Origin: Paracoccaceae bacterium
Lineage (GTDB): Bacteria > Pseudomonadota > Alphaproteobacteria > Rhodobacterales > Rhodobacteraceae
Assembly: GCA_965116235.1 (NCBI GenBank)
Contig: OZ220496.1
Location: 2,782,693 to 2,846,692 of the forward strand
DNA length: 64,000 nucleotides
Reading direction: 5' to 3'
Position numbers and translations under genes: made by a program. Below, one piece after another: positions 13,139-64,000 of this stretch (its first letter is position 1; each line of letters starts with the position of its first letter). A model generated the notes under the pieces. It saw nothing but the letters and a program-made list of their open reading frames with translations, did no database searches and was not told the origin of the DNA.

Positions 13139-13789
13139 TCAAAATGGTGGATGCAAGGCCAAGGCAAGAGTCGCCTCTATATCTCGGACCGAATTGGTTA
13201 CGGCACGACCGATCAGGTCCATGTTGCGAATCTGCCTTATCCTGTCCTTGCACTTCTTGTGCTGCATTTCCGACAAGATATGCTTGAATATTCCACAGGC
13301 ATCGACGAGACCGATGATCACAATGTCTCTTGGTCCGGGTATTTTGTCACTGAACAGAACGTCCAGTATCCGCAGCTTGACTTCCTGCTCGACCTTTCCA
13401 TCAATCACAGGATATCGACGAGTGCGAAAAACCCATAAAAACCGATCATCGACCTTCTCCAATATTTTCTTCTCCACCAGGCGACCCAATGCCAGTTTCT
13501 TGATTCTCTCGGAATCCAAAGCCAACGTCTCAACCCAACCCTTGGGATCCTTGTTGTCTTCACTGTCAACAATTGCCCTCAAAATTGGATCATACATTTC
13601 ATCCCCGGTCGGAGTGGAATCAATGACCGAGAGCCGTTCCAAATCCGTATCAATCTTGTCCAGCAACGCCAACTCCATCATGACGGAACCAGCCAGGACA
13701 CACCGCATGGAAAGCTCAGGCACATGAAGAATCCTGCCGTCTTCATCCTCAATCAGCATCAGCATAATTTCTTCAGGAAAACTTAACAT
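13139..13789 (-). CDS. GPP34/GOLPH3-family protein
   Basis: MLSFPEEIMLMLIEDEDGRIL...RCVLAGSVMMELALLDKI matches the characteristic N-terminal pattern of the GPP34 family. The ATG at 13789 is preferred over the TTG at 13795. Confidence 0.7.
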   Translation of the reverse strand: MLSFPEEIMLMLIEDEDGRILHVPELSMRCVLAGSVMMELALLDKIDTDLERLSVIDSTPTGDEMYDPILRAIVDSEDNKDPKGWVETLALDSERIKKLALGRLVEKKILEKVDDRFLWVFRTRRYPVIDGKVEQEVKLRILDVLFSDKIPGPRDIVIIGLVDACGIFKHILSEMQHKKCKDRIRQIRNMDLIGRAVTNSVRDIEATLALALHPPF

Positions 13790-16795: not shown

Positions 16796-17269
16796 CTAGA
16801 ATTCGTCCCGCCGATTGGCTGCATCCGGAGCAATCAAATCGGGCGTAACGCGACCTAGACTTCGCAGGATTTGCTGAACCAGCGTCAATCGGCCCTTGTG
16901 AGTCTCGGTGACACGCTGGGTCAATCGCACCGGAATGCCATCCTCAAGACCATAGGTTTCAACGTTCGAAACGGTTCCGTCGTTGCCGTATGCAATCAAC
17001 ACGACGTTGCGTTCAACGACCTCGGGCGCTCTCAGCCCCCGACTGTGAATCGTATTTTCAACAAAAATCCATGACACGCCGTATTCATCATCAATCAGAG
17101 TGGGCGTTCCAATTGCATCAAACACCTGCTGCGGCGTGCTGACTCCAACCTCAATCGCAGCCAGTTCCTCGTCGGTCGGTATATGACCATGCCGGGAGGT
17201 TATACCTGCACATGCCACCAACAAAAGCACAGAAACACACAATGATGCAAGGCGAAACATGGTTTTCAT
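16796..17269 (-). CDS. bamE: outer membrane protein assembly factor BamE (SmpA/OmlA lipoprotein)
   Basis: Signal peptide with lipobox LLLVAC, followed by a SmpA/OmlA-like body of 157 aa. Confidence 0.75.
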   Translation of the reverse strand: MKTMFRLASLCVSVLLLVACAGITSRHGHIPTDEELAAIEVGVSTPQQVFDAIGTPTLIDDEYGVSWIFVENTIHSRGLRAPEVVERNVVLIAYGNDGTVSNVETYGLEDGIPVRLTQRVTETHKGRLTLVQQILRSLGRVTPDLIAPDAANRRDEF

Positions 17270-28789: not shown

Positions 28790-29757
28790 CGCCTGTAAAT
28801 TGCATGGCGTTGGGTCCCAACAGGTCTGGACTGTTTCCGACTTGGAACCTTGCCTGCCATTCACCGATCGATCTGGCCATTGGCTGTAATGCCATGGATC
28901 TGACTCCGGGAGCAATGTCGGACCCTTGATTTCGATACTGGCTTGATCATTGATCTCCCGATTCGACGGAATGGGATCACCGAGACGCCGGCTTAGGGAA
29001 GGGAAGTCAACGTGACACGCTGCGGGGCTAAAGGTCAATCGGGAAAATGCACCGACAATGGTGCTCCTGCATGCGAAAGAGGAGCTTGACTGGAACGACA
29101 ATCAAGGAGTGGGATGTCATCGTGACGCGCTTTTAGGCCGCCCTTCCAAAGCTGAATTTCTGCAACCTTGCAAGAACAGGCACTATTCTCACTTTGGGAT
29201 GGTGTCCGGCTGGACCGGTTTCAGGTGATGCGCACGCCCGGAAGCTTCAAGGCCTGCTCCTGCAGCAGGATCGGTGCCATCATCAGTTTGGCAAGGCGCA
29301 GAAACGGCTGTCTGTCGGGTGGCCGCCTTGGGCTGGGCTTGGGACAATGGGTCGCCGGTGCCACGCCCGATGATCACGCCGGAAGGCCGTCATCATGGAA
29401 CAGAAGGGTTTGCCCGGTCGTGCGCATGAGCCATTCGGCATATCGGGCCAGCATGGCACAGCCAAACATGGATGCGTCCACGACAAGCCCGATGATGAGA
29501 CCGGCCGCACCTTCCGATCCATGGTGTTCAGGCTTCCGACAGCGTGACCCCCACGAGGCCGTCGCTTGTTGGACCGTACGGTCTCATCGGTCATGTCCCG
29601 GCCGGCTGAGCCGACACGACCGGAGGCCGTCCAAGGTTGCTTCGGCGCGATGTTGACAGCCCTTTGACACCCGGTGAGTCCACTGGCTCGCGTCTGAAGG
29701 TCACGTGCGGTTTCATCCTGTATCGCTCCTGACGGGGGCCGGCCGCCGGCCTGCGCC

Positions 29758-29776
29758 GATGCCGACAACCGGCATC
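29758..29776 (-). terminator. hairpin just downstream of the left autotransporter stop
   Basis: GATGCCG-N5-CGGCATC stem-loop 33 nt after the stop, followed by a GGCCGGCGGCCGGCC palindrome. There is no U-tract, so function is uncertain. It is conserved in the right arm. Confidence 0.35.
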
Positions 29777-29808
29777 GCTCCGCAACCCGACGGCCTTCCG
29801 TCTCCCAA

Positions 29809-32800
29809 TCAGAAGCGGAAGGTCACGGACAGACCGCCCCCAAAGTCGGTGTTGTCGCTCCCCGCCGTCGCATAAAAGGCATCCCCCGTCAGTAGCGTCG
29901 TGTCGTGGCCGCCCAGAGACATCGCCCCGCCCACGCCCAGACGCACCCAGGTCGGCTTCACCTCCGTCGCCAGCCGGGTGCCGGCCACCATCACCGCATG
30001 CTTGGACGAGAACTCATGCTCCAGATCCAAAGACGCATACAGCCGACCGTCGGTATCCTCCGGACCCAACTCGGCCAAGACACCTACACGACCCTGAACG
30101 CTCTGCTCCTTGTCCGGAGCAACCCGGCCGGCTCCATCGATCCGGGTCGGTTCGTCAAAGGCGTCCATGTCCACCGATGACCAAGACAGACCCCCACGCG
30201 GAATCACGGTCATGCCTCCCATACTCATCGGCTGACCGACTTCCACTCCGAGCGCCAGACCGTTGCCACCTCCCTTGGAGGTGATCGCACCGACCGCACT
30301 GTTGGCCGACACCATCGTGATATCAAAGAACCGGGTGTAGCTCAGCTGGCCGTCCACATACAGCCCGCGGTCGTCCGTCCAGGTCAGGGACAGGCCCACA
30401 CCGGTGCCGCTCGCTTCCATGGTGCCACCCTTCTTGACGGTGGCCTCACTTTGCCGGTAGTGGGCACTCACGCCCAGCACCAGACGCTCATCGGTCGGCA
30501 CTTCCAGACCCGCCTCAAAGTCGGTCTGCTTGACATCCCATGCCAGAGACTGACGCCAAAAGTCCTGGGCCGTCGTCGATGTATCGGCCATCCGCTCACC
30601 GTCACGGACCGCCAGACGTACCCAGACACCCGTGCGGGAACTTGGAGTTACCACATGCTCGCCCTTGCTGCTCTCGACCATGACCTCCTCGTCGCCGGTG
30701 GTCCGGCGGGGCACCGCCATGCGCGTACTGTAGGGCGTCAGGTCCACCAGACCCAGAAGCACCGACGGCAACACCTCATACAGACGCGCCCGATGGCTGT
30801 ACAGACGCAAGACCGGAGCCGACGGATCATCCTCGAATTGGTAACCATCCGTAATCTTCTCGAGCTGGGCCTTGAACACCTGTTCGTACACACCCATCCG
30901 GTCGCCACGGCGGTAGACATGATCATTCACCTTCAGATCATTCTCGGTTCCGGATGCACTGCGGGTCTTGAACTCGAGTGTGGAACGGGTCCTCTCCTTG
31001 TTCTCTTCTTCTATATCCTGGGCCGCGGACACGCGGTTCAGGATCTTGCCTTCGACATGACCCACGACACCCGCCTCATCCTTCTCCAGAATCACCGCGA
31101 CAACTTCGGCCTGGTCATCGTCAGCCTTGGGATCCACCTCGATGGCCACGCCGGATTTCGCCTTGACATGCGCGCGAGGACCAATCACGATCGTGCCACC
31201 CCCCTTCTCGCTCGCGCCTAGCGCGACTATGCTGCTTCTCCGGATGCGCACGCCGGCACATATGTTCTGGCCCGTCTTCGTGTTGGTGCATGCCGAGTCA
31301 CCACCCATGACCGTACCGCGGATGGTAAGAGCAAACTTGTCGACGGCCGAGCCGCGCTTGTCGACCATGATGCCATAATGGTCCGCCGTGATCACGCTGC
31401 CTTCCTTGGTCTCGACCGTGGCCGTGGCACCAGCGTAAGCACGGGCACGGATGCCAACCTTCTTCGCCGTGATGCGGCTGCCCGCCTCCATCGTGATCGA
31501 TACGGCCTTGTAGCCTTGCGCATGAATGCCCGCAGGTGATGTGCCCGTAGTAGGTTCTGCACCCGCCGTGATCTTGCCTCTGTGGGTGATCGTGATGGTA
31601 CCGGTGCGGTCGGGGTCAAGGTAAACCGCAATCCCATATCCGCTTGCCACAATCTCGCTGTCCGCTCCTGTCTTAATCACGACGTCGCCCCCGGCTGTCG
31701 TTTCGCCAGGATCTAGGAGTCGTACATACATCCCAAAATTGTCTTCGGTGAGTATACTCCCCAAGTGCCTGATCATGATTTTGCCTTTGGCGTCTGCGGT
31801 TAGATCCATATTGATGCCGTACTCCTGCGCCTTTATGCTGCTGCCTGGCATCGTTGTGACCGTGACGTCTCGGATGCCTTTCGCTTCAATACCATGTCCA
31901 GCCGCATCGATCAGGCCTCCGTGGGTGATCCTGATGTTGCCGATGCGTTTATTTCCGCCAATCTCGGCCTTGATCCCATACGGGTAGACTCCATTGTCAC
32001 TGGCTGATTGGTTTCGGTTCGTCTTGATCTTGCTGCCCGCTCCCGTCTCAATCACGATGTCGCCCTTGATCCCGCTCCCGCTTGTGGGATCCTCCAGGGA
32101 TGCACTTATTCCATGCGTGGCATATATTGCGCCTTGGTGCGTGATCGTGATTGTGCCGACACCCGCGGGCTTTATAGCTGCGACAATGCCATACGCACTG
32201 ATGGGGTTGCCATCCGCGCCGAGCGTCACTCCGGGATCAACCGTAATCGTGATACCACCCTTGGCATGCTGCTCGACATCCATGCCATAGCCCTGCTCAT
32301 AATTCTCGCCGCTGTCATGCGCAAGAATGGAACCGCCCTTGAGATGGACCGTGATCGGTATCGTCGTGCCCGCGGCGGCTTCGTCAGTGCGAACGTGGAT
32401 GCCTTTTTTGGGACCGCGCGGCACCGGCAGCGGCGGCGTCGCCTTCGACACGTCAATTGTGGCGCTCGACTCAAGATGGATGCCCCCGGTCACCCCGTCC
32501 TTTTTATTGGCCTTGTCTTCGGCTTCCCCCGTGTGTTTAAGGTCAATGCCCAATAATCCCCCAGCACCCGAGGTAGTGATGATGCTCTTTTCGTCCAGTA
32601 CGAGCTTGAGCAAGCCGGTTCCGGCACGCTCCATGCCTATGCCCGTGCCCTGCGAATAGGTCGCGATACGGCCTGTGACCACAACATCACGGGCGCCACC
32701 AGTTGTGGCGGTAATGCTGAGGGCACCGCCGGTGAGGTGTTTTGCGGTTGGGCTTTCGCCAAGCACGGCCCCGTTCAAGTCCAGTGTCAGACCTCCGGTC

Positions 32801-33081
32801 AGTCCGCGGCATGAAATCACGTCCGTGTATGGCTCGTCACTGCTCAGGGCAAACTTGGGCAGCGTTCCATCTGTACCCGTGCATGTTTGGGCCGCAACCG
32901 AATGTGGTACCGCCAGGAGCATCCCCAGCCCGACAAACAGCGCTCCAATTGTCGAAGGCCCGAAGCCCGGTCCACGGAGGGACCCAACCGAGAGATCATC
33001 TACCCCCCCCCTGCTCGTGTTCATGGGCACGCACGGGCCGGCCCCGTCCGCCCAGATCGAAATCAATCCTGTCATGATCAT
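29809..33081 (-). CDS. autotransporter outer membrane protein (large repetitive beta-helix-type passenger plus C-terminal beta-barrel); reading frame intact
   Basis: Signal-like STIGALFVGLGMLLAVPHSVAAQ. Long Gly/Thr/Ile-rich passenger with recurring units such as ...GTITITH.G.I.A...GI.A... C-terminal about 280 aa barrel region ending GGGLSVTFRF (terminal aromatic). Start taken as the ATG at 33081 (MIMTGL) with GAGAAGGGAA upstream. The 33216 TTG start in the track reads through the promoter region. Confidence 0.85.
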   Translation of the reverse strand: MIMTGLISIWADGAGPCVPMNTSRGGVDDLSVGSLRGPGFGPSTIGALFVGLGMLLAVPHSVAAQTCTGTDGTLPKFALSSDEPYTDVISCRGLTGGLTLDLNGAVLGESPTAKHLTGGALSITATTGGARDVVVTGRIATYSQGTGIGMERAGTGLLKLVLDEKSIITTSGAGGLLGIDLKHTGEAEDKANKKDGVTGGIHLESSATIDVSKATPPLPVPRGPKKGIHVRTDEAAAGTTIPITVHLKGGSILAHDSGENYEQGYGMDVEQHAKGGITITVDPGVTLGADGNPISAYGIVAAIKPAGVGTITITHQGAIYATHGISASLEDPTSGSGIKGDIVIETGAGSKIKTNRNQSASDNGVYPYGIKAEIGGNKRIGNIRITHGGLIDAAGHGIEAKGIRDVTVTTMPGSSIKAQEYGINMDLTADAKGKIMIRHLGSILTEDNFGMYVRLLDPGETTAGGDVVIKTGADSEIVASGYGIAVYLDPDRTGTITITHRGKITAGAEPTTGTSPAGIHAQGYKAVSITMEAGSRITAKKVGIRARAYAGATATVETKEGSVITADHYGIMVDKRGSAVDKFALTIRGTVMGGDSACTNTKTGQNICAGVRIRRSSIVALGASEKGGGTIVIGPRAHVKAKSGVAIEVDPKADDDQAEVVAVILEKDEAGVVGHVEGKILNRVSAAQDIEEENKERTRSTLEFKTRSASGTENDLKVNDHVYRRGDRMGVYEQVFKAQLEKITDGYQFEDDPSAPVLRLYSHRARLYEVLPSVLLGLVDLTPYSTRMAVPRRTTGDEEVMVESSKGEHVVTPSSRTGVWVRLAVRDGERMADTSTTAQDFWRQSLAWDVKQTDFEAGLEVPTDERLVLGVSAHYRQSEATVKKGGTMEASGTGVGLSLTWTDDRGLYVDGQLSYTRFFDITMVSANSAVGAITSKGGGNGLALGVEVGQPMSMGGMTVIPRGGLSWSSVDMDAFDEPTRIDGAGRVAPDKEQSVQGRVGVLAELGPEDTDGRLYASLDLEHEFSSKHAVMVAGTRLATEVKPTWVRLGVGGAMSLGGHDTTLLTGDAFYATAGSDNTDFGGGLSVTFRF
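33003..33011 (-). repeat. G9 homopolymer (C9 on the + strand) inside codons 23-26 of the left autotransporter
   Basis: AGC AGG GGG GGG GTA reads ...NTSRGGVDDL and is in frame. Confidence 0.9.
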
Positions 33082-33121
33082 TGTTCCCTTCTCGTTATCC
33101 AAAAAGTAAAGTCTGCTAAAA

Positions 33122-33150
33122 AATAAATGCCCCCCCCCCAAGATTTGCAA
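33122..33150 (-). promoter_or_regulatory. putative sigma70-type promoter of the left autotransporter, with a G10 tract in the spacer
   Basis: On the gene strand: TTGCAA-ATCTT-G10-CA-TTTATT, a 17 nt spacer, about 40 nt upstream of the ATG. The tract is 33130-33139 (C10 on the + strand). The -35/-10 assignment is by eye only. Confidence 0.45.
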
Positions 33151-33186
33151 CTCTTTTGTGACGCTCCGGTTCATTTTTCTCCAAAC

Positions 33187-33204
33187 TGTCGCATGCATGC
33201 GACA
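33187..33204. promoter_or_regulatory. 18 bp perfect palindrome TGTCGCATGCATGCGACA upstream of the left autotransporter promoter
   Basis: Self-complementary over all 18 nt. It lies 36 nt upstream of the putative -35 and about 30 nt after the stop of the Cys-rich ORF. It could be an operator or a terminator stem. Confidence 0.3.
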
Positions 33205-33234
33205 CACCGGCTTCAACGATGTGTTGTGGCTTAC

Positions 33235-33786
33235 TCAGGGGAAAGCCTCGGACGGTGCACGATTGATCACGACTATATCAAGGGTTGAGCCTTTTCTGGT
33301 GTTCCCGTATCCCGACATGTGTGGCCCTGTTGGGCCGTTTTGGTGGATGGGGTCATGCGTCGGGCTGGGATGACGGCAAAAAGTGACAGCCCTGTACCGC
33401 CGTTGCCGGATATTCCTGAGGTCACCGAAGTCCGGAGGCGGACACACGCTCCCGCAGGAGGCGGGGTTGTCGCCATGGCAACAGCTGCAATGCTCCCAGC
33501 CGCTGGCGGGGCTGTATTTGGTCAACGTGGCACGACACGGCAACGGATCGGCAAAACGCCAAACCGGTATGCGGCCGAACCGGGCAATGATGGCTTCCAA
33601 GCCCAAGGCAACGGCACCTTGCCGACCAGCTTTCAGGTTGGGGATGACACTCGGTGGCGGATTGCGATTGACAAGAGGCGATTTGCGGAATTGCCGAGCA
33701 CTTTTGTCCCAAACGGATTTCCGCTGCTTGATGGTAGGTCGGGAGGCATGATCCGGCATGGTCGCGATACGCATGAACACACGCAT
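33235..33786 (-). CDS. hypothetical Cys-rich protein conserved in both repeat arms (intact copy)
   Basis: 183 aa ORF with GWEHCSCCHGDNPASCGSVCPPP. Across the first ~57 codons the two arms differ at 8 synonymous third positions against 3 replacements, which supports this frame. The C-terminal half is much more divergent. I recognise no family. Confidence 0.4.
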   Translation of the reverse strand: MRVFMRIATMPDHASRPTIKQRKSVWDKSARQFRKSPLVNRNPPPSVIPNLKAGRQGAVALGLEAIIARFGRIPVWRFADPLPCRATLTKYSPASGWEHCSCCHGDNPASCGSVCPPPDFGDLRNIRQRRYRAVTFCRHPSPTHDPIHQNGPTGPHMSGYGNTRKGSTLDIVVINRAPSEAFP

Positions 33787-34022
33787 AAGGATTGCAAACG
33801 ACCGTGTTGGTGCTCGTTGACGAGGAATTGTGTGTACATGGATAGTTTGTGCAAAAAAAATGAAGTTAAAACCTTTGCAAACCGGCCCGTGTGATTGTGG
33901 GTTGTGGGGGAGGATTAATCACAAAGGCTCAAATCGGTTCGGAAGTTGGGTTTAGATCCTCGCTACAGAGGTGATTCGCGCGGTCCTGCGTTGGCGGAAG
34001 TCAAGTGCTTTGACGGTCCTGG

Positions 34023-35246
34023 CTACGCTTTTTCGATTATGTAGTCCATGAGCGACGGGATACCCGGTTCCCAGCAGTCGGCTGCCATGCCGTCCCAGAT
34101 ATATCCCTTGTGCCGCATGAAGCGCCATCGTGCCATCGTCTGTTCCGGCCCTAGACCATCCAGTACTCGCTTCAGCTGGTTCGTATCCACCCGACCGTCG
34201 TGACTGCGAAAGGTCAGCGCTACATCCAGAGCCACTTTCAACCCATCAGGCAACTCCATGAATTCCCAGCGACGGCGAGCATAATAACGCTGCCGCGTGT
34301 CATACGCGGCAGCGTTAGCCGTACGACACTCGGTTGGACCGAAATGCTTGCTCTCGGCCTGTATCACCGCATCAAAGGCAACGGACCCGTAAAGCTGCAA
34401 GAAATAGGGATAGCCATCCGTCATGCCAACAAGATCTGCAATTGCCGTTGCATCACACGATATGCCCACAGCGGCTAGCGGGCGGGCTACAACATCGGTC
34501 GCGGCAATGGTGTCAAGACAGCCTAGGGGGAGATCAATGCCACGATCCCAGAAACTGGCGCCAGCCTGATCAAGGCTGTCCACCAAGCCCGGCGTACCGG
34601 CCAGTACCAGAGCGATGGGCATGCGTTCGCCGGCTTCCAGTACCGCATTAAGCAAAACACGCAGGGCATCCGGTTCTACCATGTGGGCCTCATCAAGGGT
34701 AATCAGCAGCGGACCAGCTAAGCGCAGGAGAGACTCCGATTCGGTGCGATCCGAACGCTCTGGCAAGGTCAGGGTTACCGACCCGAGACCCATCGTGATG
34801 TGAGCCTCCTTTGGCTGCATTGACTCAATATCACGCATCAGCTCCGTATGCTGGATGCGAGAGCGTTTTAGCCAGCTCCAGACCCGATCCCAAGCGGTAT
34901 CAAGCGGCTTGGTCGCATCCGATGTGCTGCCGGTTATCTCAATCGTTGGTCGAAAGAGAGTGCGATGCATACCCTCCTTCGTTGTGACCGCATTGGCTGA
35001 CAAGGGCAACAGGATATCCGGCTCCGGTCGCGAGCGTATAGTCTGGCGCAGAGCATTGAGGAGCACCGTCTTGCCTGTTCCACGTGGCCCGTAAATATAC
35101 AGGAAATCGGGTCCAGTTCGGTCTGCAATGGTCGTCAAAGGCCGCAACTGATGGACCGTTCGTGCCAGCACCGAATCAATCGCCGGTCGCTGGCCCATAA
35201 AGGGGGGTGGCTTGGCAATGCCCGGAACAAACGGGTTGTCGGTCAT
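34023..35246 (-). CDS. AAA/ORC-like (Arch_ATPase-type) ATP-binding protein
   Basis: NPFVPGIAKPPPFMGQRPAI lead-in, Walker A YIYGPRGTGKTVLL and Walker B-like LLITLDEAH. The start is uncertain: ATG at 35246 or 35297, while the longest ORF reaches 35423. Confidence 0.7.
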   Translation of the reverse strand: MTDNPFVPGIAKPPPFMGQRPAIDSVLARTVHQLRPLTTIADRTGPDFLYIYGPRGTGKTVLLNALRQTIRSRPEPDILLPLSANAVTTKEGMHRTLFRPTIEITGSTSDATKPLDTAWDRVWSWLKRSRIQHTELMRDIESMQPKEAHITMGLGSVTLTLPERSDRTESESLLRLAGPLLITLDEAHMVEPDALRVLLNAVLEAGERMPIALVLAGTPGLVDSLDQAGASFWDRGIDLPLGCLDTIAATDVVARPLAAVGISCDATAIADLVGMTDGYPYFLQLYGSVAFDAVIQAESKHFGPTECRTANAAAYDTRQRYYARRRWEFMELPDGLKVALDVALTFRSHDGRVDTNQLKRVLDGLGPEQTMARWRFMRHKGYIWDGMAADCWEPGIPSLMDYIIEKA

Positions 35247-35781
35247 CGCATTTGCGTCGGTCGGTCCTGCCACTGATTCCCTCTTCCCGCTCGTCATCTG
35301 TCGTACCAATATAGACAAACACCCATTCAAACGCAAGATAACAGCACGCCAGCCATGCGAGCCATCCAAGCTGGAATCAGCCGGTCCTGTTCGGAAGATT
35401 ACAGCTATCTGGTTTGGCCTCATGCGCCATGAGTCAGGTAAAATGACTGGCGTCCCAGTGATGTGCGCCAGCGTTCAGCATAACGATATCCAAGAACATG
35501 CTGACATGATACAACCAGCCATCAGCCGATCGGTTCGCAACAGGGCAGAAACGACTGGCCGGAGATCAGAAGCATAAACCGTTCATTGGGCCAAGCGTCG
35601 GAAGCCGATGAATCATCCGAAGCTTTGCCCCCTTCGCCCAACTTCGGAAGTTTGGCACACCAGACCAGCATGGCAACTGCCAAGCGGAAAATCACTAGAA
35701 TTAAGCAAGAGGCTGTCAGTGATGTGAGTGTTAGTAGCGGTTGAAAATGCATTCCAGAAAGGATGGACAGTTTGCAATTCC

Positions 35782-46390: not shown

Positions 46391-47638
46391 TCAGTGTGCC
46401 ACTCCTGCAGCAACACTTTCATCAATGAAGCGACCTTCCTTGAATCGGTCAAGTGTAAATGCCGCTGCCAACGGTCCGGGTTCACCCTTGGCAAGCAAGT
46501 CGGCCATTGCCCAGCCTGAACCTGGTATGGACTTGAAGCCACCCGTACCCCAGCCGCAATTGATAAAGAGATTGCGGATCGGAGTTTTCGAAATGATCGG
46601 GGACCGGTCTCCGGTCATGTCAACAATGCCTCCCCATTGTCGCAGTATTTTCAATCGTGAGAAAACGGGGAACAATTCAACGAGTGCGCGGACAGTATTT
46701 TCAATATGGACAAAGGAACCGCGCTGTGTGTAGTTATTATAGCTGTCAGCACCGCCTCCAACAACAAGTTCACCCTTGTCCGACTGACTGACATAGCCGT
46801 GGACCGTGTTCGCCATGACGACAATGTCCAGACATGGCTTTATAGGTTCTGACACCAAAGCTTGCAGTGCAACGGATTCAATGGGCAAGCGAAAACCGGC
46901 CATCTCAGCCAGCAAACTTGAGTACCCGGCTACGACCATGCCAACCTTTCCAGCCATAATCGCTCCCCTGTTGGTTTGCAGGGCAATGTCCCCGTTCGCC
47001 GCAGGATCAATTCCTGTTACCTCACACTGCTGGATGATATCCATGCCCATGTCAGAACATGCCCTGGCATATCCCCACGCGACCGCATCATGTCTGGCGG
47101 TTCCTCCTCGGGGTTGCCACAAGGCTCCTAGGATCGGATAGCGCGGACCTTCGATATTGATAATGTTGCAGAGTTCGCGCACTCGCTGGGGAGTGATATA
47201 TTCTGTTTTGACTCCCTGAATGATGTTGGCATTGTTGATCCGTTGGAATCCCCTAGCCTCATGGTGGGTTTGCGCAAGGCTCATGACACCCCGCGGGCTG
47301 AACATGATGTTGTAGTTCAAATCCTGGCTTAGGGTTTCGTAGAGAGATCGGGACTTCTCGTATATCGCTGCCGATGAGTCCTGAAGATAATTGGATCGAA
47401 TGATGGTCGTGTTTCGTCCGGTATTGCCACCCCCAAGCCATCCCTTCTCGACAATGGCAATATTCTTGATGTCATGATTTTTTCCAAGGTAATAGGCCGA
47501 AGCCAGCCCGTGGCCTCCAGCACCGACAATGACAACATCATATCGTTTCTTCAGTTCTGGCGACCGCCACGCTCGCTCCCAGCCCTGATGATAGTTCAGC
47601 GCCTCTTTCACCAATCCAAATGCGGAGTATCTTTTCAT
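46391..47638 (-). CDS. soxB: sarcosine oxidase subunit beta
   Basis: MKRYSAFGL..., VVIVGAGGHGLASA FAD fold, and a C-terminal GWGTGGFK. The ATG at 47638 is preferred over the TTG at 47653. Confidence 0.95.
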   Translation of the reverse strand: MKRYSAFGLVKEALNYHQGWERAWRSPELKKRYDVVIVGAGGHGLASAYYLGKNHDIKNIAIVEKGWLGGGNTGRNTTIIRSNYLQDSSAAIYEKSRSLYETLSQDLNYNIMFSPRGVMSLAQTHHEARGFQRINNANIIQGVKTEYITPQRVRELCNIINIEGPRYPILGALWQPRGGTARHDAVAWGYARACSDMGMDIIQQCEVTGIDPAANGDIALQTNRGAIMAGKVGMVVAGYSSLLAEMAGFRLPIESVALQALVSEPIKPCLDIVVMANTVHGYVSQSDKGELVVGGGADSYNNYTQRGSFVHIENTVRALVELFPVFSRLKILRQWGGIVDMTGDRSPIISKTPIRNLFINCGWGTGGFKSIPGSGWAMADLLAKGEPGPLAAAFTLDRFKEGRFIDESVAAGVAH

Positions 47639-47889
47639 CCTAACGTCATGCAACTTCTACCCGCCTCACAGCCCCGTACATGTAATGGAATTTCTGCGTA
47701 TTGTTAGAATGGTGCCGAGATATAAGCCTCGGCTTCCGAACCGATTTAAGCTTTTGTGATTGATCACAACCCATCACACGGGTCGATTTGAAAAGGTTTG
47801 ATCTTCATTTTTCTGCACACACTATCCATACACAGACAATTCCTCGTCAACAAGCACCAACACGGTCGTTTGCAATCATACGTGTGTTC

Positions 47890-48428
47890 ATGCGTATCGC
47901 GACCATGCCGGATCATGACTCCCGGCCCACCATCAAGCAGCGAAAATCCGTTTGGGACAAAGATGCCCGGCAATTCCGCAAATCGCCTCTTGTCAATCGC
48001 AACCCGCCACCGAGCGTCATCACCAACCTGAAAGCCGGCCGGCAAGGTCCGCTGCCTTGCGCTTGGAAGCCATCATTGCCCGGTTCGGCCGCATACCGGT
48101 TTGACGTTTTGCCGATCGGTTGCCGTGTCGTGCCATGTTGACCGAATACAACCCCGCCAGCGGCTGGGAGCATTGTAGCTGCGGCCATGGCGAAGACACC
48201 CACCCCTGCGGGAGCGTGTGTCCGCCTCCGGACTTCGGCGACCTCAGGGATATCCGGCAACGGCGGTACAGCGCTGTCACTTTTTGCCGTCATCCCAGCC
48301 CGGCACATGACCCCATCCACCAACACGACCCAACAGGGCCACACATGGCGGGATGCGGGAATGCCGAAAAAGGCTCAACCCTTAGTGCAGTCGTGATCAC
48401 TCGTGCGCCGTCCGAGGCTTTCCCCTGA
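47890..48428 (+). pseudogene. second copy of the Cys-rich arm ORF, split by a 1-nt deletion
   Basis: Homologous to 33235-33786 throughout, but CAAGGTGCCGTTGCC in the left copy is CAAGGTCCGCTGCC here (about 48046-48060). The frame therefore shifts and ends at 48141, and homology resumes in the track ORF 48120-48428. Confidence 0.45.
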
Positions 48429-48458
48429 GTAAGCCACAACACATCGTTGAAGCCGGGG

Positions 48459-48476
48459 TGTCGCAGGCATGCGACA
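48459..48476. promoter_or_regulatory. imperfect copy of the arm palindrome (TGTCGCAGGCATGCGACA)
   Basis: Same position relative to the promoter as in the left arm, with one mismatch from perfect dyad symmetry. Confidence 0.25.
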
Positions 48477-48512
48477 GTTTGGAGAAAAATGAACCGGAGC
48501 GTCACAAAAGGG

Positions 48513-48540
48513 TTGCAAATCTTGGGGGGGGGCATTTAAT
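48513..48540 (+). promoter_or_regulatory. putative sigma70-type promoter of the right autotransporter, with a G9 tract in the spacer
   Basis: TTGCAA-ATCTT-G9-CA-TTTAAT, a 16 nt spacer. The tract is 48524-48532. AGGAG lies 5 nt before the ATG at 48586. Confidence 0.45.
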
Positions 48541-48585
48541 GTCAACGAGTTCTATTTTCTATTTTTGGATAGCAAGACAGGAGTA

Positions 48586-51521
48586 ATGATGATGAAATTG
48601 ACTTCACTTTGGGGCCGACGCGGCCATCCGGCCCCTGCCTGTGAACGCGTCGGGGGGGGGTAGATGACCTTGCGACCCGCCCCCGCGTCGGGTCGGCATT
48701 CAGGCTTGCGACGATTGGAGCGCTGCTTGTCGGGCTCGGGATGCTTGTCGCCTCGCCGCATCCCTCAGCGGCCCAAGGCACCTGCTCCGTAAGTGACGGG
48801 ACGAATTCGGAAACGGTTCCGGATGGCAATCCGCCGGAGGTTACCAAGACCGGCCAGTACGACGAGCAACTTGATTGCAAGGGACTCGCCAACGGCCTGA
48901 AGCTGACGCTGGATGACTTCAAGGTCGGCACAAGCGACGACCCAGCTGATGAAAGAGGTCTTATCGTTAACGCGGATGGTGCCGAAGGCGACGATGTCAC
49001 GGTCATGGGCAAAGTAGTCATCCATTCCGATAAGTCCGGCATAAACCTGTCACGGGACGGGACGGGATTGCTCAAGTTGCAGTTGGATCCGGAAAGCGAA
49101 ATCAATATCGCGTTGTCCGATGATGATGATGCGCGCATGAGAGGGAACAGTGGCATTTTTCTCGAGCACTCGGGGGAAGCCGATACGGCTCTTGATGGCG
49201 GCATCCACCTCGTGTCGAGTGCCAAGATTGACGTGTCGAAGTCGCTGTACGTCGGCAAGGCAGGCATCGCTGTTAGGACCGGGGAAACAGAATCGGACAC
49301 AGCCGAGGGCACGACGATACCGATCACGATCCATCTCAAGGGCGGTTTCATTCGTGCGGAGGACACTGACAGTAAGAAACAGTCGGGAAATGGCATCAGA
49401 GTCATTCAGTACGCCAAGGGCAAAGTCGACATCACGGTGGACCCGGGGGTGATGATCGGCATGGAAGGCAAATCCATCGGCCGGGCTGGCATTGATGCTA
49501 CGATTTTTCCCAAGGGCGACGGCAACCTCGTGATCAAGCACTCAGGGCATATATACGCCGACGAGTATGGAATATATGCATCCTTAGCAGATCCTGGCGA
49601 CACGCCAGCCGGGGGCGACATCACGATTGAGACGGGAGCGGACAGCGTGATTGACACAAGCGGGTATGGGATTGCGGCTTACCTTGAAGAAGACCGCACC
49701 GGGACCATCAAGATCAACCACTATGGCAAGATCAAGGCGGGTGCCCAAGCGGGTATTCATGCGCAAGGTGACAAGGCCATATCGATCACGATGGAGGCGG
49801 GCAGCCGCATCACGGCGACGGAGATTGGCCTTCGTGCCCTCGCTTACCTTGGCGCCACGGCCACGGTCGAGACCAAGGAAGGCAGCGTGATCACGGCGGA
49901 CCATCATGGCGTTCAGGTTGACCAAAGAAGCCCGAAGCAAGGAGACCCGGCCATAACAAAGTTTACTGTCACCATCCGCGGCACGGTCATGGGTGGTGCC
50001 ACCGAATACGCCGGTGTGCACATCTTTAAGAGGGATCTGCCGCCGGATGGAACTCAGGGAGATTCTGGGTATTGGGCAGGAGATCCGACGCCGAGCGGAG
50101 TGGGCGGCACGATCGTGATCGGTCCCCGGGCGCATGTGAGCAGTTTCCATGCCCAGCCCGATACTGAATCCGCGAAGAAGGTGGCCATCAAGGTGGATGC
50201 CGGTGCGAGCACCGCCACCGCTCCGGTGACCATCATCCTGGAAAAGGACGAGGCGGGTGTTGTGGGTCATGTTGAAGGCCAGATCCTGAACCTCGCGGCG
50301 ACAGGAAACAGCAAGGGAAAAACGGACGAACCACCCCGCTCGACACTCGAGTTCAAGGTGTCGGGAAGTAAGACGGCTCTGGAACCGGGTGCCCCCGATG
50401 CGATCATTTATCGTCGTGGCCAACGGATGGGCGTATATGAACAGGTGTTCAAGGCTAAGCTCGAGGAGCTTGACGATGATAAGGGTTACCAGTTCAAGGA
50501 TGTTGCGTCGGCTCCGGTCTTGCGTCTGTACAGCCATCGGGCGCGTCTGTATGAGGTGGTGCCGTCGGTGCTTCTGGGTCTGGTGGAGCTGACGCCCTAC
50601 AGCACGCGCATGGCCATGCCCCGCCGGAGCACCGGCAACGAGGAGGTCATGGTCGAGAGCAGCAAGGGGGAGCATGTGGCGGTGCCGGGTGCCCGCACGG
50701 GTGTCTGGGTGCGTCTGGCGGTTCGCGATGGGGAACGGATGGCCGATACATCGACGACCGCAACGGACTTCTGGCGTCAGTCTCTGGCGTGGGATGTGAA
50801 GCAGACCGGCTTTGAGGCGGGTCTGGAGGTGCCGACCGATGAGCGTCTGGTGCTGGGCGTGAGTGCCCACTACCGGCAGAGCGAGGCCACCGTCAGGAAT
50901 GGTGGCACCATGGAAGCGAGCGGCACCGGTGTGGGCGTGTCCCTGACCTGGACGGACGACAGCGGGCTGTATGTGGACGGCCAGTTGAGCTACACCCGGT
51001 TCTTTGATATCACGATGGTGTCGGCCAACGGTGCGGTTGGTGCGATCACCTCCACGGGTGGCGGCACCGGTCTGGCGTTCGGTGTGGAAGTCGGCCAGCC
51101 GATGAGCATGGGGGGCATGACCGTGATTCCGCGTGGGGGTCTGTCCTGGTCATCGGTGGACATGGATGCCTTTGACGAACCGGCCAGGATCGATGGAGCC
51201 GGCCGGGTTGCTCCGGACAAGGAGCAGAGCGTTCAGGGTCGTGTGGGCGTGCTGGCTGAGCTGGGTTCCGGGGAGGCGGACGGTCGGCTGTATGCATCGC
51301 TGGATCTGGAGCATGAGTTCTCGTCCAAGCGTGCGGTGATGGTAGCCGGCACCCGGCTGACGACCGAGGTGAAGCCGACCTGGGTGCGTCTGGGCGTCGG
51401 CGGGGCGATGTCTCTGGGCGGCCACGACACGACGCTACTGACGGGGGATGCCTTTTATGCGACGGCGGGGAGCGACAACACCGACTTTGGGGGTGGCGTG
51501 TCCCTGACCTTCCGCTTCTGA
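48586..51521 (+). CDS. autotransporter outer membrane protein, paralog of 29809-33081; frame broken at a G9 tract (phase-OFF as sequenced)
   Basis: ATG ATG ATG AAA... (MMMKLTSLWGRRGHPAPACERVGGG) hits TAG at 48661. With one more G the frame runs GGGVDDLATRPRVGSAFRLATIGALLVGLGMLVASPHPSAAQG into the 926 aa track ORF (48741-51521). That continuation aligns with the left copy (RGGVDDLSVGSLRGPGFGPSTIGALFVGLGMLLAV). The protein ends GGGVSLTFRF. Confidence 0.8.
48652..48660 (+). repeat. G9 homopolymer in the 5' coding region of the right autotransporter
   Basis: Read directly: GTC GGG GGG GGG TAG. The main ORF is in the frame reached with G10 (or G7/G13). Confidence 0.9.
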
Positions 51522-51553
51522 TCGGGAGACGGAAGGCCGTCGGGTTGCGTAGC

Positions 51554-51572
51554 GATGCCGGTTGTCGGCATC
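51554..51572 (+). terminator. hairpin downstream of the right autotransporter stop
   Basis: GATGCCG-GTTGT-CGGCATC 33 nt after the stop. Same element as in the left arm. Confidence 0.35.
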
Positions 51573-52744
51573 GGCGCAGGCCGGCGGCCGGCCCCCGTCA
51601 GGAGCGATACAGGATGAAACCGCACGTGACCTTCAGACGCGAGCCAGTGGACTCACCGGGTGTCAAAGGGCTGTCAACATCGCGCCGAGGCAACCTTGGA
51701 CGGCCTCCGGTCGTGTCGCCTTCGCCGGCCGGGACATGGCCGATGAGACCGTCCGGTCCAACAAGCGACGGCCTCGTGGGGATCACGCTGTCGGAAACCT
51801 GAACACCGTGGATCGGAAGGTGCGGCGGGTCAATCATCATCGGGCTTGTCGTGGACGCATCCATGTTCGGCTGTGCCATGCGGACCCGATATGCCGAATG
51901 GCTCATGCGCACGACCGGGCAATCCCACCTGTTCCATGATGACGGCCTTCTGGCGTGATCATCGGTCGGGGCACCGGCGACCCCATTGTCCAAGCCCGAC
52001 CCAAGGCGACCACCTGGCATGAATCCGACAGACGGCCGTTTCTGCGCCTTGCCGAACTGACGTTGACACCGCCCCTGTTGCAGGAGCGGGCCTTGGAGCT
52101 TCTTGGCGTATGTATTGCCTAAAACCCGTTCAGCTTGACGTCATCCCAAAGTGAAGCTTGTACTTGTTCTGGCAAGGTTGCAAAAAAACCAGTTCCGGAA
52201 GTTCAGTGTAACGGTGGACAGGAATATTTAGTTCGGACGGGATTATATGCCTGATGGTCTACGGATTGCGTCTAAAATCAACGGACGACCCGGCTTGACG
52301 GAATTGGACCGTACTTTACGTTCTTCAATATCTACCAAACAGGAGATCGGAGCAGTGAAATGCGTATGGAAGAGAGACAAACCAGTACGTCATCAGCACT
52401 GGGAACACGTTAACCCTCCTCTTCAAATAATGTGCGAAATCCACTCCAAGCGCTCGTTTAAGTTGAGGCTACCTTACCGTTGTGATTGTTCCAATCCTTA
52501 TTCGGAGAATATGTCTGACCTGCTAGGTGCCTCTTCGTTTCTCAAGACAATCCAGTGTGGTCCGTACGAAAGCAACTCTGTCAGACTTTTAAGGTTGCAA
52601 CCTTCAGTTCTTTAGCAATATACAGATATGTGATGCCTCAGGGTACGTTTGAGCGCAGGAGTTTGTTGGCACTGCTTACTTCATGTAGAGCACTCTGGCA
52701 ATGGATATTGGTAGTCGTCATGGATTCGGCTGAAGTGGACTGAT

Positions 52745-55765: not shown

Positions 55766-56788
55766 ATGGAGTTTGGATTCATGATGGATGAGAGCCTTTT
55801 CGGAGTCCGCGACAAGCGTGGACATTGGCGACCCTTCAGGCGAGTCAAGTACCCGCCGTTGTTCACTTGGCCCGTCAGGATTCGTCCCCTTTTGGCGTGG
55901 ATATTTCGCTGGAATGGCTACATTTACCCGTACAACCTGCTGTATGCTGTCGTAGGCATCCTGGTTTGGACCTACCTGACCCCCGACCTGTCAACGATGC
56001 AGTCATTTGGCTTCGACTGGGTTCTTTTCATCCTGCTCAGAAATGCCGGCATCATGACCCTTTGGTACGGCCTGTTTCATCTGCGTCTATACATTGTCAA
56101 GGGCCAGGGAACCGCGTTCAAATATAACCCCAAATGGCCGGAAACCGACAGTTCCGGTTTTCTGTTTCGAAATCAAACCATCGACAATCTGATCTGGTGC
56201 TACTTCAGTGCCTTGCCTCTGTGGACTGCATATGAAGCGGCAACCCTTTGGATGATGGCAAACGGATTTATTCCTGTTTTGGCCTTCACCGAGAATCCGG
56301 TGCTGTTTGTTGCACTATTTTTTGCCATTCCACTGTTCAGAGAAGTTCATTTTTACTTTATCCACCGACTGATCCACTGGCCTCCACTCTATCGTGCCTG
56401 CCACAAGGTTCATCATGCCAACTCCAATCCAGGTCCTTGGTCGGGATTGTCCATGCATCCCGGAGAACATCTTATTTATTTTTCAAGTGTCCTGTTGCAT
56501 TGGATTGTTCCCTCGAACCCGGTACATGTCGTATTCCATATGGTTCACCTGACCATGTCACCACCTGTGACTCATTCGGGATTTGAAAAGGTCGTTCTGG
56601 ATGATGGCAAGGCTGTCGACACCAATGCATTGGCTCACTACCTTCACCACAAGTATTTTGAAGTGAACTATTCTGATGGAGCCGTGCCACTTGACAAGTG
56701 GTTCGGATCGTTTCATGACGGGTCGCCGGAGGGCGACAAGCTGGTCCAGCAAAGGTTAAGACACCTCAAGGCTCGATCCGTAAAATAG
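55766..56788 (+). CDS. fatty acid hydroxylase / sterol desaturase family membrane protein
   Basis: Histidine boxes HFYFIHRLIH, HKVHH and HYLHHKY, with several TM segments. Confidence 0.85.
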   Translation: MEFGFMMDESLFGVRDKRGHWRPFRRVKYPPLFTWPVRIRPLLAWIFRWNGYIYPYNLLYAVVGILVWTYLTPDLSTMQSFGFDWVLFILLRNAGIMTLWYGLFHLRLYIVKGQGTAFKYNPKWPETDSSGFLFRNQTIDNLIWCYFSALPLWTAYEAATLWMMANGFIPVLAFTENPVLFVALFFAIPLFREVHFYFIHRLIHWPPLYRACHKVHHANSNPGPWSGLSMHPGEHLIYFSSVLLHWIVPSNPVHVVFHMVHLTMSPPVTHSGFEKVVLDDGKAVDTNALAHYLHHKYFEVNYSDGAVPLDKWFGSFHDGSPEGDKLVQQRLRHLKARSVK

Positions 56789-56852: not shown

Positions 56853-56862
56853 GGGGGGGGGG
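56853..56862. repeat. G10 homopolymer in a convergent intergenic region
   Basis: Read directly: GAAGGCT-G10-ACGAC, between the stops of 55766-56788 (+) and 57007-57678 (-). Confidence 0.9.
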
Positions 56863-60517: not shown

Positions 60518-62104
60518 CTACTTTTTCTTGACCTTGGGAACGATTGAGGATTGTGATGCCGCCGATGGCAATGGCAACACCTTTCGACTGTCGTTCTTTG
60601 GCGATTGCTCTTGGTCTGGAGGCTGTGGTTTATCACCCGCAATCACGTGGGTTATTTCTTCGCCGGTGAGGGTTTCATATTCAAGCAGTCCCTGCGCAAG
60701 CCGTTCGAGATCCTGCCTCTTGTCGGTCAGTATCCGCTTCGCCTGCACATAGCCCTCATCAACAATGCGCCTGACTTCCTCATCGATGAGTTCTTGGGTT
60801 TCAGGACTGACGCTGCGACCGGACGCGACCGGACCCAGATAGGTATCCTGTTCAGTCGAATAGTCAATGCGTCCCAGCTTGTCTGACATTCCATAGCGAG
60901 TGACCATGTCTTTCGCCAGTTGAGTCGCCTGCTTGATGTCGGATGCCGCCCCGGACGTGATATTGTCATCGCCGAACACGATCTCTTCGGCTACTCGTCC
61001 TCCCATCGCCATGGCAATCATGGACTGAAATTTTGTGACTGTCACCGTCAACTGGTCGCGTTCGGGCAAGCTGAGAACCAGTCCCAAAGCTCTCCCTCTG
61101 GGAATGATGGTGGCCTTGTGAATCGGATCGTGCTGTGGCACATTGAGACCGACAATCGCATGGCCGGCTTCGTGATAGGCGGTCAATTCCCGTTCTTCCT
61201 TGGTCATGATCATCGAACGCCGCTCTGTCCCCATGAGAATCTTGTCCTTGGCATTCTCAAAATCAACCATGGTTACAAAGTCTCGCCGCACTCTGGCCGC
61301 TATCAGGGCCGCTTCATTGACTAGATTCGCCAAGTCGGCACCCGAAAAACCAGGGGTTCCGCGTGCGATCGTCTGCAGGTTCACATCACTTCCGAGGGCA
61401 ACCTTGCGGGCATGAACTTGCAAAATTTTTTCTCTGCCAACCAGATCAGGCGTCGGCACGACGACCTGACGATCAAACCGGCCGGGCCGCAACAGTGCCT
61501 TGTCGAGTACATCCGGACGATTGGTCGCTGCTATGATGACGACTCCGTCATTGGCTTCAAACCCGTCCATCTCGACCAGCAACTGGTTCAGAGTCTGCTC
61601 ACGCTCATCATTGCCCCCGCCGATACCAATCCCGCGGGAACGACCAACGGCATCAATCTCGTCAATGAACACGATGCACGGCGCATTCTTCTTGGCTTGA
61701 GTGAACATGTCTCGCACCCGCGATGCGCCCACCCCCACAAACATCTCGACAAAGTCCGAGCCGGAAATGGAATAAAAGGGAACATTGGCTTCGCCGGCGA
61801 TGGCCTTGGCCAGCATGGTCTTCCCTGTTCCCGGCGATCCAATCAGCAAGGCACCTTTGGGAATTTTTCCTCCCAAGCGAGAAAAAACATTCGGATTCTT
61901 CAGAAAATCGACGATTTCCTCGAGTTCTTCCTTGGCTTCGTCGATACCGGCAACATCGTCAAAGGAGACCTGAGTTCGATCTTCGGTCAGAAGCCTGGCT
62001 CGGGACTTGCCATAGCCGAATATGCCGCCCATCCCTTGTGACTGCTTCCGCTGAAGATAATACATCAACAGCAAGAACAACAATCCCAGTATCAGACCGT
62101 TCAT
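60518..62104 (-). CDS. FtsH-family ATP-dependent zinc metalloprotease paralog lacking TM1 and the periplasmic domain
   Basis: 528 aa. It begins at a single TM ([17 protein letters not shown]) that aligns with TM2 of the upstream ftsH. Walker A GSPGTGKT, Walker [10 protein letters not shown], second region of homology (SRH) [20 protein letters not shown] and HEAGHAIV are all intact. Confidence 0.9.
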
Positions 62105-62192: not shown

Positions 62193-64000
62193 TCACTGGA
62201 GCGACTCATCACTGGCATTGTCCCGAGCCATCTTTTCTTCTTGCCGCGGACGGCGGCTCGTTGTCGGCACCGTAAAGATTCGTTTTTGATCGGCTGGAGG
62301 CGGATCATCATCCTTGGTCAAGGGCTCGCCCTTCAGCACCTTCTCAATATCCTTGCCGGTCAAGGTTTCATATTCAAGCAAGCCTTGCGCCAACCGTTCC
62401 AGATCATCCCGCTTCTCAATCAGGATGGCCTTGGCGGTGTTGTATCCCTCTTCCACAATCTTGCGAACTTCAGCATCTATGATCTCCAACGTGTCCTGAC
62501 TAGTGTTCGCCTGCGTCGAATACGGCCCAAGAAATGACTGTTGCTCGTTGGCATAATCAATATTTCCCAGCTTTTCCGACATCCCGAACTGCGTGACCAT
62601 CGCCCGGGCAATGCGCGTTACCTGCTTGATGTCGGAGGCCGCTCCGGAAGTTACATTTTCGGGGCCGAAAACCAGTTCCTCAGCCACCTTTCCACCCATG
62701 GCCATCGCAATCTTGGATCTGTATTTCGTAATGTTGACGGACAACTGGTCGCGCTCAGGCAGGGCCAGAACCAATCCGAGCGCCCGTCCTCTTGGTATGA
62801 TCGTGGCCTTGTGAATCGGATCATGCTGCGGGACGTTCATGCCGACAACGGCGTGACCGGCTTCGTGGTACGCTGTGAGTTTCTTTTCATCTTCTGTCAT
62901 GACCATTGATCGCCGTTCAGCCCCCATCATGACCTTGTCCTTTGAGTTTTCAAAATCGAGCATCGTGACAAAACGCCGGCCAACACGAGCGGCAAGAAGG
63001 GCCGCTTCATTGACCAGATTGGCCAGATCGGCACCAGAAAAACCCGGTGTGCCTCGTGCAATGGTACGAAAGTCGACATCCGGACCCAGCTTGATGTTTC
63101 GGGCATGAACTTCCAGTATCTTCTCCCGCCCCGCAATGTCCGGATTGGGAACGTGAACCTGTCGATCAAATCGGCCGGGGCGCAACAGTGCCGGATCAAG
63201 GACGTCGGGACGGTTCGTTGCTGCAATTATGATTACGCCTTCATTCGCCTCAAACCCGTCCATTTCGACCAGCAACTGGTTCAGGGTCTGCTCGCGCTCA
63301 TCGTTGCCACCCCCGTAGCCAACCCCGCGTGATCGCCCGACAGCATCAATCTCGTCAATGAATACGATGCACGGCGAGCTTTTCTTGGACTGTTCAAACA
63401 TGTCCCGAACTCGTGAGGCACCGACACCGACAAACATCTCGACAAAGTCCGATCCAGAAATCGAAAAGAAAGGAACTCCGGCTTCGCCGGCAATGGCTCG
63501 GGCCAAGAGAGTTTTACCTGTTCCGGGTGGCCCCACCAGCAAAGCCCCTTTCGGAATTTTTCCCCCGAGCCGGGAAAACTTGGCCGGGTCGCGCAGGAAC
63601 TCGACGATCTCCTCAAGCTCCTCCTTGGCCTCATCGATTCCTGCCACGTCCAGAAAGGTCACCTTGCCCTGACGCTCCGTCAACAACTTGGCCTTTGACT
63701 TGCCAAATCCCATCGCGCCGCCCCGGCCACCACCCTGCAAGCGATTCATCAGGAACAACCAGAAGGCTATCAGAAGAATGATGGGCAGAAACGGACCAAC
63801 GAACGACATGAAACCGCTGGGCTCTTGCGGCTCAACCTCGACAGCCACATCGTTTTCAAGAAGATATCCAGACAGATCATACCCGCCCGGGGCAATGGTC
63901 TTGATTCGTTCGCCTGATGTCGTGGCGGCGTGAACTTTTTCGCCATCAATGATGACGGCACTGATTTCCTCTTCATCGACGAGTTGTATGAAGCCTGAAA
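62193..64000 (-). CDS. ftsH: ATP-dependent zinc metalloprotease FtsH; 5' end beyond the window
   Basis: [31 protein letters not shown] and HEAGHAVV. The frame stays open upstream of the track start (63848) to the window edge, through periplasmic-domain-like sequence (...[49 protein letters not shown]). Confidence 0.93.

Follow-up and report, generated by a model that had tools for sequence, protein, structure and literature searches.

The window analysed here, a stretch of 64,000 nucleotides (nt) of contig OZ220496.1 from a Paracoccaceae bacterium, carries two paralogous autotransporter genes, called left and right after their positions in it. The right gene, on the plus strand, is the subject of this account: its leader ends in a run of nine guanines (G9), and its reading frame is broken at that run. 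The elements recognized in and before this gene are listed below; the fused frame is the one obtained when the leader is joined to the body of the gene.

48524..48532, plus strand: upstream G9 tract, 54 nt before the ATG, between TTGCAA and TTTAAT
48579..48594, plus strand: Shine-Dalgarno (SD) sequence AGGAG and triple in-frame ATG, an SD-ATG block kept in all five aligned leaders
48586..48663, plus strand: leader reading frame in the OFF state, 25 codons, ending at TAG 48661-48663
48652..48660, plus strand: coding G9 tract, proposed slipped-strand switch, from sequence and frame analysis
48660..51521, plus strand: autotransporter body in the +1 frame, from the open frame, an AlphaFold2 model and residue features
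48678-48704, plus strand: basic residues, fused frame
48705-48752, plus strand: hydrophobic core L41-A56, fused frame
48768-48779, plus strand: AAQ/G, followed by the beta-rich passenger, fused frame
50772..51425, plus strand: C-terminal autotransporter beta-barrel, PF03797, Pfam E=2.6e-30

Leader, frame and protein class of the right gene

Regarding its start, the right gene has the SD sequence AGGAG at 48579-48583 (plus strand), as read from the sequence, followed by three ATG codons in one shared frame (48586, 48589 and 48592). Translation from ATG 48586 in the present state yields the 25-codon peptide MMMKLTSLWGRRGHPAPACERVGGG and stops at TAG 48661-48663, right after G9; these are the coordinates given in an earlier note on this DNA, and reading of sequence and frame confirmed them. 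The body frame, +1 relative to the leader, begins ...GGVDDLATRPRVGSAFRLATIGALLVGLGMLVASPHPSAAQGTCS and is open from just 5' of the tract to TGA 51519-51521, for 958 codons. The same note had calculated that one added G restores the body frame, and the frame arithmetic bears this out, with the addition that G7 joins leader and body as well as G10 does; the restored junction aligns with the left paralog as claimed (GGVDDL...TIGAL.VGLGML). G8 or G11 would put a proximal GTG at 48641 in frame with the body, and this codon has no SD sequence.

The order of elements at the N-terminus of the fused frame is Gly run, VDDL, basic residues, hydrophobic core, AAQ/G, passenger, helix and beta-barrel. Thus, of the position assigned earlier to the tract, the 5' end of the gene stands, just after the start, but the signal peptide does not: what holds the tract is an N-terminal extension, and the signal peptide proper, with its hydrophobic region, comes after it. 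No ATG, GTG or TTG was read in the body frame between the tract and ATG 48741, the codon at which the database annotation P0001 (926 aa) starts; because ATG 48741 falls within the hydrophobic core, which spans residues 41-56 of the fused protein, a start there leaves no signal peptide, and the suggestion that the gene might simply begin downstream of the tract fails on this point. Since the 958-codon frame has no usable start that supplies a signal peptide, the G9 state, as read from the sequence, could give no exported protein, and the gene is OFF.

As for the protein, PF03797 is found in both genes with similar significance (E=6e-30 in the left one). The AlphaFold2 model of the right gene, with a mean predicted local distance difference test score (pLDDT) of 73.5, has short beta strands over residues 14-597, then a helix (599-614) and a barrel (654-925); the top Foldseek matches of the modelled barrel are EstA, EspP, BrkA, NalP, Hbp and AIDA-I, with a template modelling score (TM-score, target-normalised) of at most 0.77. 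Features of a Sec signal peptide, judged from residue features and Kyte-Doolittle hydropathy (core up to 2.57), occur solely in the fused (G10/G7) frame, namely R32, R34 and R40, the core at 41-56 and AAQ/G. The right gene is a classical type Va autotransporter, given its PF03797 domain, the modelled barrel, helix and passenger, and the predicted signal peptide.

At E up to 10, Pfam had no match in the first 570 residues of the fused right protein, which take in its N-terminal extension and passenger, and an N-terminal extension of the ESPR type (PF13018) was rejected, with no Pfam match even at E up to 10 in three N-termini. A trimeric type Vc autotransporter with a YadA-type anchor was likewise discarded: Pfam shows solely the monomeric PF03797, and the structural matches are type Va barrels. 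Chlamydial Pmp proteins have a middle domain of their own and GGA(I/L/V)/FxxN repeats; membership in that family was set aside, any Pfam domain besides PF03797 being absent from both full-length genes, with the GGA(I/L/V)/FxxN motifs not searched for.

Tract length and frame across the family

The left paralog differs from the right one in state, and its elements are:

29809..33081, minus strand: left paralog, autotransporter of 1090 aa from ATG 33081, in frame (ON), from Pfam and frame analysis
33003..33011, minus strand: coding G9 tract of the left paralog, in frame
33130..33139, minus strand: upstream G10 tract of the left paralog, read from the sequence

Both coding tracts are G9, and the left one is in frame whereas the right one is not because the leader measures 70 nt in the left gene and 66 nt in the right gene. 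The two belong to a large family: homology searches found 14 family proteins on the 3.25 Mb contig that holds the window which, with the left gene, make at least 15 copies, about 1.4% of the DNA of this genome; a second organism (61% G+C) has at least 16 further copies on a circular contig of 3.01 Mb, and shorter contigs, as well as a circular one of 5.19 Mb, hold more members. Nearly all copies have an uninterrupted poly-G tract between start codon and signal peptide (G8-G11, G15, G21-G32), at a position common to more than 40 members from at least three lineages, with a length of G8 to G32. When the passenger alone was used to search 1.84 billion cluster representatives, 37 matches were obtained; among the 16 inspected, 8 had an N-terminal Gly run and 7 were truncated. 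On the sequences compared, this is a rare family, and having the tract is a trait of the family as a whole.

Relatives that could be retrieved as DNA all come from one metagenome assembly of the ENA, ERZ24894574. The loci of the window's own group (53-56% G+C) read as follows:

left gene: upstream G10, coding G9, ON
right gene: upstream G9, coding G9, OFF
L001: upstream G5AG3 (interrupted), coding G10, OFF
L003: upstream G9, coding G9, OFF
L004: upstream G8, coding G11, OFF
L096: upstream G9, coding G9, ON
L097: upstream G9, coding G9, OFF

Two of these, the left gene (G9, ON) and L001 (G10, OFF), are paralogs with near-identical leaders one G apart. Similarly, the protein P0002, whose leader is almost that of the right gene, is annotated in frame, and the right gene and L003 are OFF at G9. 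In a second species, three tandem genes have coding tracts of G32, G22 and G21, and a third lineage has G15, the position being homologous throughout. For whole genomes, the state was judged from the annotated N-termini, a Gly run and full signal peptide being set against a start inside or after the hydrophobic core: by this measure 9 of the 15 copies in the window's genome are full and 6 truncated, and in the 3.01 Mb genome the figures are 10/16 and 6/16. Examples of the full class begin MMTKLTSLWGRRGHPAPACERVGGGVDDL..., MNARGGVDDL... and ...AMGGGGGGGGGGVGSPP...; those of the truncated class begin MLVASPHPSAAQ..., MPHPAAAQ... and MAQSCTP.... Overall, about 40% of the family is out of frame, at the tract alone, the rest of the gene being intact.

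This last point bears on the possibility that the right gene is a decaying pseudogene, a redundant paralog that lost its frame at a mutational hotspot in a family that is eroding and not switching. There are many redundant paralogs, the upstream flank of L001 is split by an insertion sequence, and decay, not phase variation, was the conclusion for inactive capC and capD genes of Campylobacter (PMC7168839). Against it, the sole lesion of the right gene is at the tract, with 958 codons open behind it, and the same holds for every other out-of-frame copy examined (958-1038 open codons); moreover, although the surrounding sequence has indels and diverges by about 30%, 13 of 14 tract positions are uninterrupted. 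Decay is thus the least probable of the alternatives weighed here.

Regarding the nature of the conserved element, the Gly runs are all encoded by GGG, a codon that makes up 17% of the Gly codons in housekeeping genes, and the frame in which the stretch before the tract is read differs among paralogs; therefore, by this comparison, selection is on the DNA homopolymer and not on the peptide. In L004-type genes the SD-ATG opens an upstream open reading frame (ORF) of 20 codons, and the end of this ORF overlaps a proximal ATG in the sequence ATGA (MNARGG...).

Within the window the tracts also stand apart in number. Chance predicts 0.66 G/C runs of 9-10 nt and 8.5 of 7-8 nt; the sequence has five of the longer class and not one of the shorter. 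The left and right paralogs account for four of these five, at homologous positions, and no A/T run of 9 nt or more occurs in the window. Window-wide, G/C runs of 5-8 nt fall short of expectation, and A/T runs of 5-7 nt are above it. The bimodal spectrum of G/C runs fits a general avoidance of such runs together with a maintained class of long tracts. Of the features that mark a simple-sequence-repeat locus, a long, over-represented repeat at the 5' end is present (48652-48660 and 48524-48532), and tract length decides the frame. The fifth long tract, a G10 at 56853-56862, is intergenic and follows a fatty-acid-hydroxylase-like gene (55766-56788); a 73-codon ORF from 56844 crosses it and reads MKAGGGDDF.... 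Its origin as a relic of a family leader was rejected, alignment scores being no better than those of shuffles.

Slipped-strand phase variation at the coding tract, put forward in the earlier note, is the best reading of these data and a probable one: it gains strong comparative support from the family-wide tract, the differences in length and state and the intact OFF copies, and from this comparison we infer reversible switching at the locus itself. Replication slippage would, at high frequency, add or remove a single base in the coding tract; the gain of one G, or the loss of two, would fuse leader to body and turn the gene ON. Each of the at least 15 copies would flip independently and reversibly, and the population would carry a changing mix of surface proteins.

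Several observations weigh against this reading. No orthologous locus from another strain emerged from the searches: family protein patterns had no match in GTDB representative genomes and JGI metagenomes, the 28-nt leader pattern had none in JGI metagenomes, and exact-protein look-ups of P0002 and of two genes flanking in the window returned none either; the exact right gene is a single sequence in the databases searched. L003 has the leader of the right gene and the same G9 OFF state, which could mean that G9 is stable there. The contig names of ERZ24894574 (e.g., ctg6925c, ctg6291l) suggest a long-read assembler; homopolymer length errors are plausible in the relatives, and certain for G21-G32. 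Finally, a consensus scan called no sigma-70 promoter around the upstream tract.

The contig names also lend weight to a homopolymer miscall, by which the true tract would be G10, the gene intact and the OFF state an assembly artefact. G/C homopolymers of 9 nt or more are a classic error site, the window has no G/C run of 7 nt or more outside the tracts on which accuracy could be calibrated, and the same doubt was raised for the pmp poly-G tracts of Chlamydia psittaci (PMC3323650). Yet 6 of the 15 copies in this genome are out of frame, as are four of the five copies read as DNA on related contigs, and the in-frame tract length is 8, 9 or 10 depending on the paralog, as set by leader indels; since it differs between paralogs, no uniform bias in length would make every copy ON. 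The other genes of the window are intact, including those with A7, A8 or T7 runs, and even with this call wrong the tract would remain a hypermutable switch by design. A miscall is therefore regarded as unlikely.

The third alternative is recoding at the RNA level, in which polymerase slippage or a ribosomal +1/-2 frameshift would give some full-length protein from G9, so that the tract would set the level of expression and not a heritable ON/OFF state. In its favour, transcriptional slippage is known to occur at homopolymer runs of 9 nt or more, and L003 has the same leader in the same G9 state. The locus of the second species, L002, points the same way: a tandem duplication of 19 nt (GGGAGCCGATCATGGA...), found at 13560-13620 and 16990-17050 before the tracts G22 and G21, provides two SD-ATG starts in different frames, which indicates that the family tolerates several entry frames; two of the three tract-length classes would therefore be translated. 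Against this, transcriptional slippage is best documented on A/T runs, and no stimulatory structure or conserved shift site stands out besides the run itself. Recoding at G9, while quite improbable as the explanation, is compatible with switching at the DNA level and could act alongside it.

The L002 locus has further particulars: a strong promoter, TTGACT-N17-TATAGT, lies about 190 nt 5' of each gene (9790-9910 and two copies downstream), and the leader contains a GC-rich hairpin with a T run after it, a candidate attenuator.

Upstream tract and cassette structure

The paralogs of the window's group each have a second tract, mostly G8-G10, about 55 nt 5' of the start and beside an invariant TTGCAA; it is absent from the account in the earlier note. 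The spacing between TTGCAA and TTTAAT/TTTATT is 16 or 17 nt in four loci, and not so in L004, L096 and L097. It is conceivable that the upstream tract tunes transcription through promoter spacing, but this is speculative and somewhat doubtful. Its inclusion in a small upstream ORF (ATGAACCGG...) was rejected: the ATG is ACG in L003, and frame-breaking indels occur between tract and SD. No Rfam RNA element was found in the leader or the upstream flank, and an invertible promoter element was dismissed, since the inverted repeats found were short and non-conserved.

Conservation extends well beyond the genes, as the elements of the flanks indicate:

47791..48532, plus strand: conserved upstream flank, apparently non-coding, matching 33131-33876 at 84-92% as an inverted repeat
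48460-48475, plus strand: near-palindrome GTCGCAGGCATGCGAC, within the upstream flank
48512-48520, plus strand: invariant GTTGCAAAT, within the upstream flank
51522..52186, plus strand: conserved downstream flank, its first 280 nt sharing 98% identity with the left locus, with the inverted-repeat pairs I1, I3 and I7

The duplicated unit therefore exceeds the gene (47791-52186 versus 29157-33876), with about 740 nt on the 5' side and about 660 nt on the 3' side that are 77-98% identical; the upstream flank is also kept at L096, L001, L097 and L004, and the downstream flank at L001, L096 and L004. In L001, an insertion sequence at 8036-9321 splits the upstream flank, with a gene weakly matching DDE_Tnp_1 and an unassigned neighbouring gene, and an extra G9 is present at 9707-9715, where the window reads GGTGTGTC.

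The left-right substitutions by codon position are 17/13/18 in the upstream flank (p=0.65), versus 24/11/46 in the C-terminal part of the gene (p=9e-6); with such counts, a 183-codon ORF in the upstream flank is overall unsupported as a real gene. In the first 171-nt block of this flank (47878-48048), 9 of 13 left-right differences fall at third positions of a same-strand ORF (MRVFMRIATMPDH...), and a small protein of about 60 aa may be encoded there. The left upstream flank has a perfect 16-nt palindrome, GTCGCATGCATGCGAC, at 33188-33203, of which the near-palindrome at 48460-48475 is the right copy, with one mismatch; it may be a putative binding site of a dimeric regulator.

The N-terminal and middle parts of the passenger are far more diverged between left and right than the flanks, and L003 combines a leader of the right type with a passenger start of the left type. 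With ends that are conserved and a middle that varies, the loci look like cassettes, which suggests that family copies have undergone gene conversion or recombination with one another. An ATPase gene of the AAA_22/AAA_16 type lies near family members at two loci, the window (34023-35423) and L004 (13045-14376).

Host organism and comparison with known systems

The right gene lies between a soxB-like gene (46391-47653) and a TPR-like gene of 308 aa. At the soxB-neighbour site of a related species (43.5% G+C, ten assemblies) no family member is present; a nearby autotransporter of that species was considered as a relative and proved unrelated (BLASTP E=2.3), and its loci, with no G/C runs of 7 nt or more, are uninformative on the tract of the right gene. 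Farther along the window, two tandem FtsH-like genes (60518-62104 and 62193-63848; AAA plus peptidase M41; 528 and 551 aa) seem N-terminally short for FtsH.

As for the organism, the GlmS protein encoded in the window shares 70% identity with its counterpart in 'Rhodobacteraceae bacterium bin131', and among the other representative genomes identity does not exceed 52%; bin131 is a metagenome-assembled genome from the sponge Aplysina aerophoba (PMC5649159). An ankyrin-repeat gene adjoins the paralog in L004. From these two observations, an association with a sponge or another invertebrate is a reasonable inference.

A whole expanded surface-protein family in an uncultured marine genome of 3.25 Mb appears to be placed under slippage switches. 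It may be, and this is offered as a tentative proposal, that the at least 15 cassette-like loci form a 'phasome' in a probably sponge-associated Rhodobacterales-like bacterium. Each locus would comprise, between conserved flanks of about 800 nt upstream and about 660 nt downstream, a promoter-proximal G tract, the G tract of the coding sequence, a passenger that varies and a barrel that is conserved; two independent poly-G switches per gene and recombination at the flanks would generate combinatorial, heritable surface variation. If true, this would be the first description of such a system in a symbiont of marine invertebrates, and it would point to pressure from host recognition or phages; if switching is real, the symbiont population would keep its cell surface stochastically diverse, which bears on the avoidance of phagocytosis by the host or of attack by phages. 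For annotation, the consequence is that pipelines give about 40% of the family false, truncated starts.

Most known cases of phase variation by repeat slippage come from pathogens of humans and animals. In Helicobacter pylori, genes of outer-membrane proteins have CT repeats in the signal-peptide region; as in the right gene, the repeat is at the 5' end, in or just before the signal peptide, and a change of frame abolishes export, although the repeats are dinucleotides and the protein family is a different one.

Closer in protein type are capC and capD of Campylobacter, type Va autotransporters with a poly-G tract whose position is conserved in the genus and whose commonest length is G9; it lies in the putative promoter of capC and within capD's coding sequence (PMC7168839). 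Here, instead, both tract positions occur within one gene, there are at least 15 copies per genome, the passenger has no Pfam family, and the host is an alphaproteobacterium and not an epsilonproteobacterium. In Neisseria meningitidis, the autotransporters NalP and MspA are switched ON and OFF by homopolymeric tracts in the coding sequence (PMC3723659), and the NalP barrel is among the Foldseek matches of the right-gene model; those genes, however, are single-copy, carry protease passengers, belong to a human pathogen and have had their switching shown experimentally, whereas the evidence here is comparative. The Pmp proteins of the Chlamydiaceae are a large paralogous autotransporter-like family, several with long poly-G tracts whose frame state differs between sequencing efforts (PMC3323650); tracts are found in some Pmps only, unlike the present family, in which nearly every copy has one at a fixed position.

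Within the Alphaproteobacteria, the direct precedent is badE of Bartonella krasnovii, a surface-adhesin gene with A9 and G9 tracts early in the frame that repeatedly underwent one-base changes during host passage (PMC11466379); because of it, the mechanism is not new to the class, although the earlier note was not aware of it as a described feature of this kind of alphaproteobacterial gene. The badE protein is a trimeric type Vc autotransporter encoded by a single gene of a mammalian pathogen, in contrast with the monomeric PF03797 barrel and large family described here. Literature searches found no report of such a system in sponge symbionts or Rhodobacterales. In conclusion, what is new in this case is the protein family, the scale (at least 15 copies per genome of about 3 Mb, nearly all with the tract) and the combination of a coding and an upstream tract within one gene, in the new setting of an uncultured marine lineage.

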